A stretch of 64,000 bases of DNA from a virus: positions 27,149 to 91,148 of the IMG/VR virus record IMGVR_UViG_3300005471_000012. The stretch is one strand, 5' to 3'. Under the pieces are notes generated by a model. The model did no database searches. It was not told where the DNA came from and worked only from the letters and a program-made list of their open reading frames with translations. The position numbers and the translations under genes are program-made. Below, piece by piece: positions 254 to 27,504 of the stretch (positions within the stretch are counted from its first letter, which is position 1; each line of letters begins with the position of its first letter).

Positions 254-787
254 ATGCCGCGCAGCCGCACCGTCGCCGATCGTGAACGCGATGCCAAAGC
301 CCTGTCCCTGCGCGCCCGCGGGTACACGCACCGGCAGATTTCCGCGCAGCTCGGCTGGAAATCACCCGCGTCCGCCGTCGGCGCCTGCACCCGCGCCATG
401 CAGGACATGTACCGGGAGGATATAGACAAATGGCGCCAGATTGAGCTGGACAAGCTCGATGACCTGACCCGCGAGGCCTGGGACGCGATGCAGGAAGCCC
501 ACTACCTCGTCTCCCAGGGCAAGGTGGTCAAGGACGACGACGGCACGATGCTCGTCAACGCCGTCGACAAAGTCAGCCAGCTCGGCACGCTTCTGCTGAA
601 GATCAGCGAGTCCCGCCGAAAGCTGCTCGGCATCGACGCCCCGCCGCAGAAGGCGCCGACGCCCGATAATCTTGATGCCGAGATCGAGACGCTGGTCAAG
701 CAGCTTTCGGGTCTGGGCGACGTGCCGAAGCAGGTGGCGGACGGCACGGTGGCCGCTATCGAGAGCGCGGCCCCGCCGGGGGCCTGA
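254..787 (+). CDS. terS: terminase small subunit (N-terminal HTH)
   Basis: GAGGAGG RBS; HTH-like start (RDAKALSLRARGYTHRQISAQLGW); RRKLLGIDAP motif typical of phage TerS; directly upstream of TerL. Confidence 0.8.
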   Translation: MPRSRTVADRERDAKALSLRARGYTHRQISAQLGWKSPASAVGACTRAMQDMYREDIDKWRQIELDKLDDLTREAWDAMQEAHYLVSQGKVVKDDDGTMLVNAVDKVSQLGTLLLKISESRRKLLGIDAPPQKAPTPDNLDAEIETLVKQLSGLGDVPKQVADGTVAAIESAAPPGA

Positions 788-794
788 GGCCGCA

Positions 795-3302
795 GTGCCG
801 CAGCCATCGTGGGATCAGCTTCCGCCTCATGCGAAGCAGCAGCTCCGCGACCGGCTCGCGGCTGAGCTGGCGGTGCGGCGCAGTACCACCCCCCGGCCGT
901 GGCGGAAGCTGGCGCGGCCGAAGCAGCTGCCGCCGGACGACCCGCGGCACTGCCTGCCGGATGCGAACGGCTACAAATGCGGGTGCGACAAGCCCGATAT
1001 GACCTTCAATGTCTGGCTCGTGATGGCCGGGCGCGGGCTGGGCAAAACGTGGCAAGGCGCCCAGTGGCTAACGGAACAGGCAATTCGGTATCCAGGGACA
1101 GAGTGGGCCGTGGTGGCCCCAACCTTCAGGGACGTGCGCAAAACGGCTATAGAGGGCACAACGGGCATTCTGGCAGCACTCCAGCCGGGCGAGCTGGCCA
1201 GCTATCACCGCAACGAGCTGATGATCACCCTCGCGGGAGGGTCCCACCTGTTCGGCTACTCGGCCGATAATCCGGAGCGCCTGCGGGGCGCCAACCTGTC
1301 CGGTGCATGGTGCGTCGCCCGGGGGGAACCCGTACTCACATCTCGCGGGCCCGTGCCGATTGAGGACGTGCGACCCGGCATGAGGGTGTGGACGCGGCAG
1401 GGATGGCGCCGGGTGCTCGCGCAGCGGCTGATGGCCCGCGCCGCGCCCGTTGTGCGCGTCGTTACAGACGGAGGGGCGAGCGTCCGGGTCACGGCAGGCC
1501 ACCGGATTTGGACGCAACACGCCGGGTGGATGGAAGCACGAACGCTGGCCCCTGGCGATATTCTTAATGTATGGAATTCGCCTACGGGCCACCGGCCTGG
1601 ATCGAATGGGAGGGCGTCCGCTTCTATCGCCGCAGCAAGAGCGGCCATTACGCGGATCGCACCGGCTGCCTGCTTCACGTCGCCGTCTGGGAGCGCGCCC
1701 ATAAGCGACGGATACCTGACGGCCACGCTGTGCATCACAAGGACGAAGATAAGGTCAACAACGGCGCCGGCAACCTCGAACTGCTCACCAAGGCCGAGCA
1801 CACCAGGCACCATAACCTCACCGAGCCCCGCGGCATTGCCGTCCTCGCCACAGCCGAGCGGTCCGGCATATCGCGCAACTCATGGGCCAACCGGCCGGAG
1901 CGCGATTTCGCCTGTAACGTCTGCGGCACCTCGTTCAAATCCAAGGGCCAGCGGGCCATGTACTGCTCGCCCAACTGCCGCGCCGCCGCCTTCCGCGCTG
2001 ATCACCGCAAACGCGGACAGGACGCGCTGGCCGACCGGCAATGCGAATGGTGCGGCGACAGCTTCACCCCGCCAGACCGGCGCACCGTCTATTGCGGCCC
2101 CGCCTGCCGCCAGAGGGCAGGAGACGGCGCGAAGCGCGCCCGCAACCGCGCACGGCTGGGAATTCCGGCCTGCGCAGCCTGCGGCAACCTGTTCACCCCC
2201 AAGGACGGTCGCCAGCGATTCTGCTCCGGTCTCTGCCGTCAGCGGCATGCGCGTCGCGAGGCTCGAGCCCGCTGGGCGGGCTGACGTATACGACCTCCAG
2301 GTCGAGGGCGTTCACGAGTTCGTCGTCGGCCGCATCCTGGTCCATAACTGCGATGAGCTAGGTTCGTGGCGGTACCCGCAGACCTGGTACGAGGGCCTCA
2401 TGCCCGCCTTGCGGGTAGGCGAGTTCCCCCGGGTGGTCGTCACGACGACCCCCCGACTCGTCCCGCTGATCAGGGACCTGGTCGGCCGCGATGACGGCTC
2501 TGTGCACATTACCCGCGGGTCGACGTGGGAGAACGCCGACAACCTGTCTGCGGCGGCGCTCGCGGAACTCCGGCACCGCTACGGCGGCACGAGGCTGGGC
2601 CGGCAAGAGCTCGAAGGCGAGCTCCTCGAGGACGTTGATGGCGCACTGTGGGCCCGCGATGACATTGACGCGGCCCGCGTGAAGCTCGGCGAGGTGCCGC
2701 AGCTGCACCGCGTCGTCGTCGCGATCGACCCGGCCACCACGTCGGGCGAGGATTCCGACCAGACGGGCATCGTGGTCGTCGGGGAGGGCCCGGGCGGGCA
2801 CGGCTACGTGCTGGCCGACCTGACGTTCCGGGGCACCCCGGATGCGACGATGCGCAAGGCGGTCGGCGCCTACCATCAGTACCAGGCCGACTCGGTCGTG
2901 GCAGAGGTCAACAACGGCGGGGATTACATCCGGTCCCTGCTGCGGACCGTTGACCCGCAGATCCCGTACCGGTCGGTGCGGGCGACCCGCGGCAAGCGGA
3001 CCCGGGCCGAGCCGGTGTCTGCGCTGTACGAACAGCGCAGAATGCACCATGTCGGGGTGTTCCCGGAGCTAGAGGACGAGATGTGCTCGTGGACTCCGGA
3101 TAGCCTCCTGGGCAGCCCGGACCGCATGGACGCACTTGTCTGGGGGTGTACCGAGCTGCGCGGCCTGTCGGTCGGCTCGTGGCGTGAAGCATACGGCGTG
3201 ATCATTTGCGCTACCTGCCAGGAGCCATACATGCCGGAAGGCAAGACGGCCTGCCCGTGGTGCGGCGCCGACGTTCCGGGTGAGGCCGAGGTGCCAGCGT
3301 GA
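795..3302 (+). CDS. terL: terminase large subunit containing an intein
   Basis: Walker A AGRGLGKT; RLRGANLSGAW..CDE Walker B split by the intein; VVVTTTP motif III; nuclease motifs VVAIDPA, AEVNNGGD, SPDRMDAL; likely GTG start at 795 after GAGG. Confidence 0.95.
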   Translation: MPQPSWDQLPPHAKQQLRDRLAAELAVRRSTTPRPWRKLARPKQLPPDDPRHCLPDANGYKCGCDKPDMTFNVWLVMAGRGLGKTWQGAQWLTEQAIRYPGTEWAVVAPTFRDVRKTAIEGTTGILAALQPGELASYHRNELMITLAGGSHLFGYSADNPERLRGANLSGAWCVARGEPVLTSRGPVPIEDVRPGMRVWTRQGWRRVLAQRLMARAAPVVRVVTDGGASVRVTAGHRIWTQHAGWMEARTLAPGDILNVWNSPTGHRPGSNGRASASIAAARAAITRIAPAACFTSPSGSAPISDGYLTATLCITRTKIRSTTAPATSNCSPRPSTPGTITSPSPAALPSSPQPSGPAYRATHGPTGRSAISPVTSAAPRSNPRASGPCTARPTAAPPPSALITANADRTRWPTGNANGAATASPRQTGAPSIAAPPAARGQETARSAPATAHGWEFRPAQPAATCSPPRTVASDSAPVSAVSGMRVARLEPAGRADVYDLQVEGVHEFVVGRILVHNCDELGSWRYPQTWYEGLMPALRVGEFPRVVVTTTPRLVPLIRDLVGRDDGSVHITRGSTWENADNLSAAALAELRHRYGGTRLGRQELEGELLEDVDGALWARDDIDAARVKLGEVPQLHRVVVAIDPATTSGEDSDQTGIVVVGEGPGGHGYVLADLTFRGTPDATMRKAVGAYHQYQADSVVAEVNNGGDYIRSLLRTVDPQIPYRSVRATRGKRTRAEPVSALYEQRRMHHVGVFPELEDEMCSWTPDSLLGSPDRMDALVWGCTELRGLSVGSWREAYGVIICATCQEPYMPEGKTACPWCGADVPGEAEVPA
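1311..2348 (+). mobile_element. intein (346 aa) in TerL
   Basis: Block A CVARGEPVLT; block B VRVTAGHRIW; block F DVYDLQVEGVHEF; terminal VHN followed by extein Cys; excision restores AW-CDE. Confidence 0.92.
1571..2284 (+). CDS. HNH homing endonuclease with three CxxC..(Y/F)CxxxC Zn-finger repeats, in an alternative frame inside the intein
   Basis: HVAVWE...VHHKDEDKVNN..NLELL...EH HNH motif; GC3-rich codons in this frame; offset +2 relative to the TerL frame. Confidence 0.88.
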   Translation: MEFAYGPPAWIEWEGVRFYRRSKSGHYADRTGCLLHVAVWERAHKRRIPDGHAVHHKDEDKVNNGAGNLELLTKAEHTRHHNLTEPRGIAVLATAERSGISRNSWANRPERDFACNVCGTSFKSKGQRAMYCSPNCRAAAFRADHRKRGQDALADRQCEWCGDSFTPPDRRTVYCGPACRQRAGDGAKRARNRARLGIPACAACGNLFTPKDGRQRFCSGLCRQRHARREARARWAG

Positions 3303-3598
3303 CGCGAACCCCGGGCACCGGCACCTGGACCGAGGCGTACACGCCCCCTGCGCGGACCTACACGGGCGTCTGCAAGGGCGGCCCGGCGGACGGGCAGCGT
3401 CATACCCTCCCGGCCCGGCTGCCCCCGCAGGTGCGGTTCTACGCCCTCCCGGAGGCCCGCCGCGGCCGGTCCGTGGTCCTGTCCAGGTACGTGCTGATTG
3501 GCATGTTCACGGCCGGGGAACTGACGTACAACTACCAGGGGACTTACGAAAAGCCCGGCCCGGTACTCGGCGACAAGGCCAACCCCGCATGGTCGTGA
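3299..3598 (+). CDS. hypothetical protein
   Basis: GTGA overlap with terL stop and with the next gene. Confidence 0.6.
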   Translation: MTRTPGTGTWTEAYTPPARTYTGVCKGGPADGQRHTLPARLPPQVRFYALPEARRGRSVVLSRYVLIGMFTAGELTYNYQGTYEKPGPVLGDKANPAWS

Positions 3599-4263
3599 CC
3601 GCCGTGACGGCGAAGACGTGCCCACGGTGCGGCCTCGACAAGCCGCTTAGCTACTTCCACCGCGACGACAGTCGGCGCGATGGCCTGCAGCCCTACTGCA
3701 GGAAGTGCAAGCGGGAACTCGGCAGGGCGCTAGCAGCCGGCCGCGCCGCCCGGCCGGCGGAAGTCGACCTGACCACTACCAAGCGATGCTGTCGCTGCGG
3801 CGAGACGAAGGCGCTAGCCGAGTTCCACCGGAACCGCCGGACTGCGCACGGCGTCCAGACTTACTGCAAGCCCTGCATGAAAACGGTCAACAAGGCATGG
3901 TCCGAAGCTCACCCTCGCCGACGGCAGGAGATCAGTCGGCAGGCTGCCGAGCGGCGCTGGGAGAAACGGCTGCTAGCAGCAGCCGGCCGCCGCGCCGCCC
4001 GCGACGGGATCGCGTTCACGATCACCGAGGCCGACGTCACCATCCCGGAGACCTGCCCCGTCCTGGGCATGCCGCTTGTGATGGGTCACGGCCGGCACGG
4101 ACCTGATAGCGCCAGCCTCGACAAGATCGACCCAATGCTCGGCTACATCCCCGGAAACGTGCACGTCATCAGCTTGCGGGCAAACATGCTCAAGTCGAAC
4201 GCAACCCCCGGCGAACTGCTGAAACTCGCCGAATGGGTCTTGCAAGGAGAATCCCCCAGATAA
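3595..4263 (+). CDS. free-standing HNH (His-Me finger) endonuclease with two N-terminal CxxC..CxxC domains
   Basis: KTCPRCG..YCRKC repeated twice; CPVLG..SLDKIDP..GY..GNV.VIS..AN..K motif. Confidence 0.8.
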   Translation: MTAVTAKTCPRCGLDKPLSYFHRDDSRRDGLQPYCRKCKRELGRALAAGRAARPAEVDLTTTKRCCRCGETKALAEFHRNRRTAHGVQTYCKPCMKTVNKAWSEAHPRRRQEISRQAAERRWEKRLLAAAGRRAARDGIAFTITEADVTIPETCPVLGMPLVMGHGRHGPDSASLDKIDPMLGYIPGNVHVISLRANMLKSNATPGELLKLAEWVLQGESPR

Positions 4264-26718: not shown

Positions 26719-27504
26719 GTGTGCCTGAACTGCGGCTGCCTCATGCCCAATGCGGACCACGGTCATCCCGGCAATTTCCTGCTGGCCGAACTGGAGAAGG
26801 CCGCCGCGGCAGGCGGCACCAGCGCCGCTGAGGCAGCCTGGAACATTCCCCGCACCCTCACGGTGGCCACGTCGCCCGCGTGGCCACCTGAGCCGTATCA
26901 CGCGGCCTCGCGGCCCACCCTGGCATGGGACGTGGACGGCATCCTCGCGTTCACCGCCGAAGCGATCGTCGCCGCGCTGAACGCCCGGTTCGACACCGGC
27001 TACGACGCCATGTCGCAAGGATTCTTCCCCGGCACGTTCGTCTCCTCGGCGCTCCCGGCCGAGGAGGCCGCCTGGCTCGGCCAGCAACTCAGCTCAGGCG
27101 AGTTCGGCATCTACGGGGCGTGCGCACCAGACTGGCACGCGATCGACACGATGCTTGACGCGTCTGCGGCGGGCTACCCGACGGTGATCATCACAGAACG
27201 GCCCGCCGTGGTGGCCGACCAGACACGTTCGTGGCTGCGGTCGTGGACCGGGCAGCAACCGCCGCAAGTCGTAGCCGTCGGCCGCGGCAACAAGCCCGCC
27301 TACATGGGAGCCCGGTTCGGGCCCGGCAACCCCGCCATCCTGGTCGACGACAACCCGGCCGTCAGGATGACCATCGCCCGTGAGGGCATCGAGGTGTGGA
27401 CCCCGCAGCGGCCGTACACGCCGGCGCCCGGCCGGCCGCATGCGCGGACATTCGGCAACTGGCCGGCAGCACGGTACTGGCTCGGGATCAGCCCCGCCAG
27501 CTAA
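26719..27504 (+). CDS. HAD-superfamily phosphatase/nucleotidase-like protein with an N-terminal CxxCxC domain
   Basis: LAWDVDGILA (DxD motif I); IITER; K; ILVDDNP. Confidence 0.65.
   Translation: MCLNCGCLMPNADHGHPGNFLLAELEKAAAAGGTSAAEAAWNIPRTLTVATSPAWPPEPYHAASRPTLAWDVDGILAFTAEAIVAALNARFDTGYDAMSQGFFPGTFVSSALPAEEAAWLGQQLSSGEFGIYGACAPDWHAIDTMLDASAAGYPTVIITERPAVVADQTRSWLRSWTGQQPPQVVAVGRGNKPAYMGARFGPGNPAILVDDNPAVRMTIAREGIEVWTPQRPYTPAPGRPHARTFGNWPAARYWLGISPAS

Follow-up and report, generated by a model that had tools for sequence, protein, structure and literature searches.

Can an intein carry its homing endonuclease in a reading frame that is not its own? The question is raised by the gene for the large terminase subunit (TerL) in a virus record assembled from a rhizosphere metagenome, IMGVR_UViG_3300005471_000012. 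The window analysed here is the 3' 64 kb of this 91-kb IMG/VR record (64,000 nucleotides (nt), positions 27,149 to 91,148 of the record, about 68% GC); coordinates of its features are those of the window, and all of these features lie on the + strand. A first-pass annotation had read an intein interrupting TerL and, in another frame between the splicing blocks, an HNH nuclease gene, and had proposed that the intein acts as a shell around this separately encoded nuclease. Such a layout does exist and is widespread in phages. Its first descriptions date from 2025-26, and the window adds a new example of it, not a new phenomenon. We consider it likely that the locus is a composite selfish element residing in a phage large-terminase gene.

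The terL intein and the gene nested within it

The TerL open reading frame (ORF; 672/795-3302) encodes a T4-type large terminase, interrupted by Pfam matches to Hint and Intein_splicing. The longest version of the ORF begins at TTG 672, and GTG 795 is the probable start. The N-extein (795-1310) holds the ATPase domain (Terminase_6N, E = 4.6e-14) with the Walker A motif GRGLGKT and ends in ..LSGAW, the first half of Walker B. The C-extein (2349-3302) begins with CDELGSW, in which the C+1 nucleophile belongs to the other half of Walker B; the RNaseH-like nuclease domain (Terminase_6C, E = 1.5e-18) follows. The extein junction is ..LSGAW|CDELGSW.., which places the intein within Walker B of the ATPase and splits this motif. 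The intein itself (1311-2348, 346 codons in the TerL frame) has the termini of class 1: the nucleophile C1 is TGC 1311-1313, and the C-terminal His-Asn (CAT AAC, 2343-2348) is followed by the C+1 codon TGC 2349-2351. Its blocks come in the order C1, TAGH (block B), DVYDLQVEGVHEF (block F) and ILVHN (block G), and blocks F and G read ..DVYDLQVEGVHEFVVGRILVHN up to the last base at 2348. In alignment A1, which comprises 27 intein hosts, T233, H236 and N518 are invariant and C173 is a Cys conserved to at least 90%. The Pfam scores of the TerL ORF are below the gathering scores, with 26-27 bits against 35.8 for Intein_splicing and 22-24 bits against 28.4 for Hint_2. Since the intein interrupts Walker B of an essential protein, TerL, protein splicing would be expected.

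The nested gene (1571-2284) lies in the -1 frame relative to TerL and encodes a putative HNH homing endonuclease of 237 amino acids (aa). It runs from ATG 1571 to a TGA stop at 2282-2284, which falls within intein block F (..AGRADVYDLQVEG..), and both frames stay open across these 714 nt. The protein consists of an N-terminal beta domain, an HNH_3 core (VHHKDEDKVNN...H) and three CxxC/CxxxC zinc ribbons. It matches Pfam HNH_3 with E = 6.6e-12 (45.3 bits, cut-off 24.8); Endonuclease_7 was not matched at E up to 0.1, and the TerL-frame reading of the middle (1572-2282) gave no Pfam match. H55, H56, N63/64, N68, H77, H81 and the zinc-binding Cys columns are invariant among 26 HNH relatives. The nearest solved structure is I-HmuI (PDB 1U3E), the sole high-probability Foldseek match of the HNH model, and 1E7D is absent among the structural matches listed. 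No PDB match of the whole model reached E <=0.001, a search in which the multi-domain, flexible nature of the model lowers global scores.

The layout read by the first-pass annotation was recovered in full, that is, a TerL intein with canonical blocks, a featureless P/A/S/T/R-rich middle in frame, an out-of-frame HNH with three zinc-finger repeats (three CxxC...CxxxC units), HNH codons rich in GC at the third position (GC3), and an HNH stop at block F. The profile searches that it had suggested likewise placed Hint_2 and Intein_splicing in the TerL frame, below their gathering scores, and HNH_3 in the -1 frame.

Structure models support this division. In the AlphaFold2 (AF2) model of the TerL-frame intein (alignment A3), the N-terminal Hint lobe (1311-1592, model residues 11-104) is all-beta, with a predicted local distance difference test score (pLDDT) of 86-96. 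The C-terminal Hint strands, with blocks F and G and the His-Asn end (2241-2348, model residues 321-356), reach 92-94, and the Hint fold is predicted to assemble from these N and C segments. The TerL-frame read-through of the HNH gene (1593-2240) is a P/A/S/T/R-rich linker of about 215 aa that belongs to no family and is modelled with a pLDDT of 33-47 and no secondary structure. The HNH-frame product has a mean pLDDT of 82.6 (AF2, alignment A2). At the 3' end the two genes share about 14 dual-coding codons (2241-2284), which encode both the C-terminal HNH helix ..RREARARWAG* and the first Hint-C strand ..RVARLEPAGRAD... Helix and strand are each predicted to be structured and each is conserved, and nt identity to the closest relative, the IMG/VR contig L005, peaks in this overlap (0.76-0.78 versus 0.62-0.69 in the flanking extein).

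The host-frame peptides of unrelated nested loci share a pseudo-conserved ..TTRMKTR.TT.. (alignment A3). It is conserved because it is the +1-frame shadow of the invariant HNH motif VHHKDEDKxNN, and an analysis of proteins only could take it for a genuine conserved intein motif.

Selection on the two reading frames

Which of the two frames is selected? In the middle of the intein, GC content at codon positions 1/2/3 is 0.66/0.58/0.80 when read in the HNH frame and 0.58/0.81/0.66 when read in the TerL frame. The corresponding values of the exteins are 0.69-0.71/0.50-0.54/0.80-0.86, and from about 1540 to about 2240 the GC3 periodicity is that of the HNH frame. L005 has an identical layout, and its HNH protein is 69.6% identical in aa. 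Over the overlap of the two genes, the Nei-Gojobori ratio of non-synonymous to synonymous substitution (dN/dS, omega) between the window and L005 is 0.21 for the HNH frame (dS 1.10), 2.09 for the TerL frame and 1.57 for the third frame, and the TerL-frame reading retains 41% aa identity. The differences fall on HNH codon positions 1/2/3 as 43/50/114, and over 1.3 kb the two sequences are separated by just two indels, each of 3 nt. It follows from the omega values, the third-position excess and the 3-nt indels that the HNH protein is under purifying selection and that the TerL frame keeps only its openness. Together with the structure models and 25 homologous loci, this comparison by frame, which the first-pass annotation had recommended, supports the idea of the intein as a shell around a separately encoded, selected HNH.

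Could the TerL frame be open by chance? For the window alone, the probability of a TerL frame free of stops is about 0.05-0.06 when the HNH protein is kept and its synonymous codons are resampled. Synonymous permutation within the ORF is a conservative null, because the codon pool has already been purged of codons that make stops, and for this reason free-standing relatives and further genes of this phage served as additional controls. Of 46 chunks of equal length from other genes of this phage, none had a stop-free +1 frame (mean 5.7 stops), and non-nested HNH relatives have 5-17 stops in their +1 frame, with the exception of the short L047 (128 codons, 1 stop). Openness recurs in 24 further independent loci, among them some at 31-40% GC with probabilities of 0.0002-0.01 each, and for six nested loci at 31-43% GC the within-ORF permutation gave probabilities of 0.0003-0.05 each. 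The decisive evidence that openness goes beyond chance is comparative, drawn from sequences across homologous loci. In an ORF, potential stops are 3-10 times rarer in the +1 frame than in the +2 frame (means 2-5 versus 5-35), and this several-fold difference accounts for the constant relation in which the host frame is HNH +1.

Occurrence in other phages

A pattern scan of IMG/VR with the HNH protein yielded 61 loci, and Tetrasphaera phage TJE1 and Clostridium phage phiCDHM19 were added from GenBank. At 25 loci the HNH ORF lies wholly inside a host ORF of 600-1240 aa that occupies the HNH +1 frame with zero stops; the +2 frames at these loci contain 2-36 stops. This relation holds for 25/27 of the contiguous intein hosts found through HNH relatives. 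All 27 host ORFs match Intein_splicing, and Terminase_6N is matched by 20, Terminase_6C by 17 and Terminase_3 by 2. The two exceptions are instructive in different ways. L064 (1432-4437) is the only host with an HNH_3 match in its own frame and has the canonical architecture, with HNH and Hint in one host ORF. The host of L031 (570-3746) is in the HNH +2 frame, with 0 stops there and 9 in +1, and its insertion site is the same as that of L027 and L036.

Two of the nested loci belong to isolated phages. phiCDHM19 (L003, NC_028996; 31% GC) has a TerL of 799 aa (443-2842) with a 221-aa HNH ORF (2056-2721) in the -1 frame, and its intein sits at the nuclease motif KHDDA|C..SN|CDA. Neither frame has a stop over 666 nt (P about 0.0002-0.0003), and AAGGAG stands 8 nt before the GTG start of the nested gene. 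The actinophage TJE1 (L002, NC_019930; 1541-3769 and 2977-3624) shows the same layout, with TACATT-N6-ATG at the nested start. Inteins with this HNH family occupy several TerL positions, including three neighbouring points around Walker B and the nuclease-domain Asp motif ..HDDA|CDA...

The nested genes also bear on annotation. The first-pass annotation had expected that such elements would be missed by protein-only surveys, which is partly true: the nested ORF is unannotated in the public records of phiCDHM19 and TJE1, but the HNH ORF of the window is already present in public protein collections as a called gene. Nested homing endonuclease genes (HEGs) lead gene callers to mis-annotate terminases, as seen in phiCDHM19 and TJE1, which lack the nested ORF, and in a Vibrio phage whose TerL is annotated in pieces.

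Candidate start signals of the nested gene

How might the nested gene be expressed? In the HNH frame a TAA stop (1565-1567) stands one codon 5' of the ATG, and therefore no N-terminally extended or frameshift-fused HNH can begin upstream. The ATG is directly preceded by an AT-rich island (1557-1571, 15 nt, 20% GC) with the host-frame codons GAT ATT CTT AAT GTA, all of which end in A or T and are rare in this phage (usage 0.11, 0.10, 0.05, 0.13 and 0.04). It contains TATTCT at 1559-1564, six nt 5' of the ATG. The arrangement TANNNT-N6-ATG is found at 1 of the 683 ATGs of the window, the HNH start, and it also occurs in L005 (TACACT), TJE1 (TACATT), L046 (TACCCT) and L021 (TATAAT). The island is a candidate -10 box of a leaderless internal promoter, which would fit hosts of the actinobacterial type, or else it may be an unstructured initiation region. 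In low-GC relatives the signal is of another kind: AAGGAG(G) is found 7-8 nt 5' of the nested start in phiCDHM19, L027 and L036, and AGGAGG 6 nt 5' of it in L031.

The nested layout spans 31-68% GC, at least two TerL active-site regions, and Firmicute, actinobacterial and marine phages. Perhaps, then, out-of-frame nesting is not a rare transient and represents the predominant, long-lived and selected lifestyle of the I-HmuI-like HNH/zinc-ribbon family in inteins; this is a tentative idea, to which we give almost even chances. Expression signals fitted to the host may be written into the intein codons, as a leaderless -10-like box at high GC and as a Shine-Dalgarno sequence at low GC. If so, separate expression of the nuclease would itself be a selected trait, by which its dose and timing are uncoupled from those of the abundant, late TerL.

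Empty alleles and fractured terminases

Two contigs carry terL without an intein, L066 (161-1618) and L067 (2392-3918). They are 64-67% identical to the C-extein of the window, which makes them as close as L005, and the presence of equally related TerLs without the intein shows that its distribution is sporadic. The uninterrupted site reads ..GAW|CDELATW.. in L066 and ..GAWADELGSW.. in L067, and the empty junction of the L066 type approximates ..GGCGCCTGG|TGCGACGAG... Since L066 keeps the Cys at +1, it is a potential homing target; L067 has Ala at this position, which could not support splicing.

Relatives of the HNH gene are also found between the halves of split inteins, with stops in the host frame (Vibrio phage 1.238.A, L006, the L009 type, L022, L026 and L052). 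In Vibrio phage 1.238.A (L001, NC_055735, 245-3973), TerL has two inteins and is a fractured split-intein terminase. Intein 1 contains an in-frame LAGLIDADG-like region. Intein 2 is broken by 14 host-frame stops across an unannotated 236-aa HNH ORF (3007-3717), and its Hint-C with the C-extein is annotated separately as a 'hedgehog/hint domain protein'. A group of near-identical low-GC phages with fractured TerL (L009-L019 and L024, about 1427-3727; eleven contigs of 3300045988, and L016 from 3300029041) has an N half ending in Hint-N (..HDH|CITGDT..), followed by a free-standing HNH gene with a strong Shine-Dalgarno sequence. Their Hint-C (..IIHN|CMDAVRY) shares its frame with the N half, and stops separate the two. 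There may be an evolutionary continuum that leads from nested inteins to such fractured terminases. We rejected the reading of the window itself as a fractured gene or naturally split intein, as it has 0 TerL-frame stops across 1571-2284.

Proposed mechanism and alternative explanations

We propose the following model of the element. A class-1 intein would occupy Walker B of the TerL ATPase (GAW|CDE), and a free-standing-type, I-HmuI-like HNH_3/zinc-ribbon gene would have its place between the splicing blocks, one nt out of frame (host = HNH +1). Ribosomes translating TerL would read through the HNH gene and produce the disordered linker, which is predicted to be excised together with the Hint domain by protein splicing, so that Walker B is restored. 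The TerL frame would have to stay free of stops and selection would maintain this, the aa sequence being selected in the HNH frame only. The HNH protein would be made separately from its own ATG, probably by means of the AT-rich, -10-like or unstructured element formed by rare host-frame codons; in low-GC relatives a Shine-Dalgarno sequence embedded in the intein codons would serve its start. The nuclease presumably nicks or cuts intein-less terL near GAW|CDE during co-infection, after which intein and nuclease would be copied together.

Several points weigh against this model. The N-extein and C-extein of the window are 63% and 68% identical in aa to those of L005, and extein, Hint and HNH have diverged about equally (63-70% aa identity). 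Such parallel divergence resembles long vertical co-inheritance more than homing in the recent past, and a simple homing cycle, with decay of endonucleases once they are fixed, would not lead one to expect it. In the window taken alone, an open TerL frame is just modestly improbable, and the strong statistics come from the relatives. Neither a -35 element nor a Shine-Dalgarno sequence is evident at the HNH start of the window. The -10-like hexamer partly overlaps the conserved Hint residues G-D-x-L; coding constraint therefore contributes to it, and the promoter stays hypothetical. Finally, there was no RNA run among the four sequencing runs that hold the locus, all of them DNA metagenomes and one of them probably the source of the window.

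Could the nuclease instead have been domesticated and benefit its host, for example as a terminase-associated packaging HNH or as a degrader of competing phage genomes? Purifying selection over a dS of about 1.1 and the parallel divergence of extein, Hint and HNH fit long-term retention better than a cycle of gain, decay and loss, and PMC3592412 presents HNH genes adjoining terminase genes as common packaging helpers. However, this HNH family occurs at several TerL intein positions and also between the halves of split inteins, as is characteristic of a mobile endonuclease, its best structural relative is the homing enzyme I-HmuI, and closely related TerLs lack the element. The usual helper role also has another candidate in the separate zinc-ribbon protein encoded 3' of terL (3280-4263), and we regard domestication as unlikely. 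Still less likely is that the HNH ORF is an inactive, unexpressed relic and that only the open TerL frame matters. Non-canonical homing endonucleases are expected to decay once homing ends (10.1101/2025.01.02.630785), and the start has no canonical Shine-Dalgarno sequence, but the relic idea is at odds with the low omega and third-position excess, with the intact ORF and its catalytic and zinc residues invariant in 26 relatives, and with an island of rare AT-rich codons placed exactly at the HNH start.

The remaining explanations deny the two-frame arrangement itself, and we rejected them. That two compensating indels might have shifted an ordinary in-frame HNH intein is a thought invited by the metagenomic origin of the window and by the in-frame member of the family, L064. 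An independent Logan re-assembly (27-kb contig, depth about 12) is nevertheless identical and without gaps, and read-length pieces from three other studies match the window exactly over 1232-1382 and 1699-2258, the frame junctions lying outside these intervals. No homopolymer longer than 4 occurs at either junction, the only indels relative to L005 are of 3 nt, and a TAA closes the HNH frame one codon before the ATG. The same frame relation is shared by L005, two isolated phage genomes and more than 20 other contigs. The first-pass annotation had named compensating frameshift errors as a danger to its reading; we see no sign of them and give an artefact a minimal chance. The identical 151-nt pieces came from two 2025 soil metagenomes and another 2017 rhizosphere metagenome (runs X2-X4), which means that the same or a nearly identical phage occurs in other samples.

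A programmed -1 frameshift into the HNH frame with a return shift, giving a canonical Hint-HNH-Hint protein, would agree with the -1 relation that is constant across lineages. That constancy is more simply explained by the smaller number of +1 stops, and we found no X XXY YYZ heptamer in the TerL frame within 1311-1700 or 2150-2348. The HNH-frame stop directly 5' of the ATG and the Shine-Dalgarno sequences before the nested starts of low-GC relatives also argue against recoding, and a ribosome that leaves the TerL frame would remove any need to keep it open; we judge it very improbable. Removal at the RNA level, with the HNH ORF inside a group I intron inserted in the intein-coding DNA, comes to mind since HNH_3/I-HmuI-type enzymes of phage genes are typically intron-encoded. 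Yet no Rfam family was found in 700-3500 at E up to 1, and at each end the HNH ORF shares bases with Hint codons whose product is predicted to be structured. With an intron the host frame would have no need to be open; it is nonetheless open in 25 loci against strong odds, and the intron explanation retains hardly any probability.

Relation to known systems

The out-of-frame architecture has been published by Gosselin et al. 2025, Arsenault et al. 2025 and Phillips et al. 2026. It had thus already been reported for other nuclease families and hosts, and the novelty claimed by the first-pass annotation was overstated. Gosselin et al. 2025 proposed that free-standing HEGs invade inteins, and listed HNH inteins only as in-frame. 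Their inteins share with the window a nuclease ORF on the same strand that lies between the splicing blocks in 'frame 3' (-1), a stop-free host frame with a structureless product, hosts that include terL of high-GC phages, and the proposed origin from a free-standing HEG that invaded an intein. The nuclease of the window differs in being HNH_3/I-HmuI-like with three zinc ribbons and in having 1U3E, not 1E7D, as its best PDB match. It is set apart from the endonuclease VII-like family by its Pfam and PDB matches, and both are His-Me finger nucleases. Beyond what Gosselin et al. 2025 describe, the present loci show the layout in low-GC Firmicute and marine phages as well and connect it with split-intein forms.

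An out-of-frame HNH and zinc-finger gene in a methylase without an intein was described in ShiLan by Arsenault et al. (Genes 2025). It too is an ORF in the third frame of a stop-free host gene, the in-frame product is a disordered loop, and in both cases there is no Shine-Dalgarno sequence and leaderless initiation is proposed. ShiLan has no splicing domains, and the junk peptide remains in the methylase; the read-through peptide of the window is removable because a complete Hint domain surrounds the HNH ORF. The cyanobacterial dnaX intein of Phillips et al. (bioRxiv 2026) likewise has a homing endonuclease in an overlapping frame, a sporadic distribution and a proposed secondary invasion of a mini-intein, but it resides in a cellular gene and not in a phage terminase, and its endonuclease is of another type (LAGLIDADG is mentioned).

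An older parallel is offered by the fractured genes of Dassa et al. (NAR 2009, PMC2677866), in which a free-standing endonuclease gene separates the two halves of a split intein. Here again a free-standing-type HEG takes the place of the intein endonuclease domain, mainly in phage genes, and the split-intein loci listed above (Vibrio phage 1.238.A, L006, L009, L022, L026 and L052) show relatives of the window HNH family in this fractured form. In the window, by contrast, the host frame is continuous and the gene unbroken, and the intein is therefore predicted to splice in cis. I-HmuI, a nicking homing endonuclease of the HNH type from Bacillus phage SPO1, has its gene in an intron and not in an intein, and its C-terminal DNA-binding modules differ from the three zinc ribbons of the window protein.

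What is new here is the combination of a known architecture with a different nuclease family, the Walker B site and an unusually clear embedded start signal. As the principle is already published, the added value lies in the breadth of occurrence, the nuclease family and the embedded expression signal. The locus offers a clean natural example of overprinting, with selection on one frame for openness only; protein splicing would dispose of the 'junk' peptide after translation. The locus also supports the model of intein origin in which the splicing domain came first and the endonuclease invaded later, and it links contiguous to split inteins. For protein engineering, an intein that can accommodate an arbitrary disordered insert of more than 200 aa is also of interest.

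Neighbouring genes

The ORF directly 5' of terL (254-787) is presumably the small terminase by position alone; searched as 254-784, it gave no usable or significant Pfam match. On the other side, a 327-aa ORF (3280-4263) overlaps the end of terL by 23 nt and contains repeated CxxC zinc-ribbon units. Its Pfam matches are Stc1 (1.4e-5) and DUF6510, with no nuclease among them, and the C-terminal part (3940-4260) yielded nothing usable in Pfam. By eye, its C-terminus (..SLDKIDP..GYIPGNVHVIS..AN..K..) has the look of an HNH/His-Me finger nuclease, and the protein may be the usual terminase-associated HNH.

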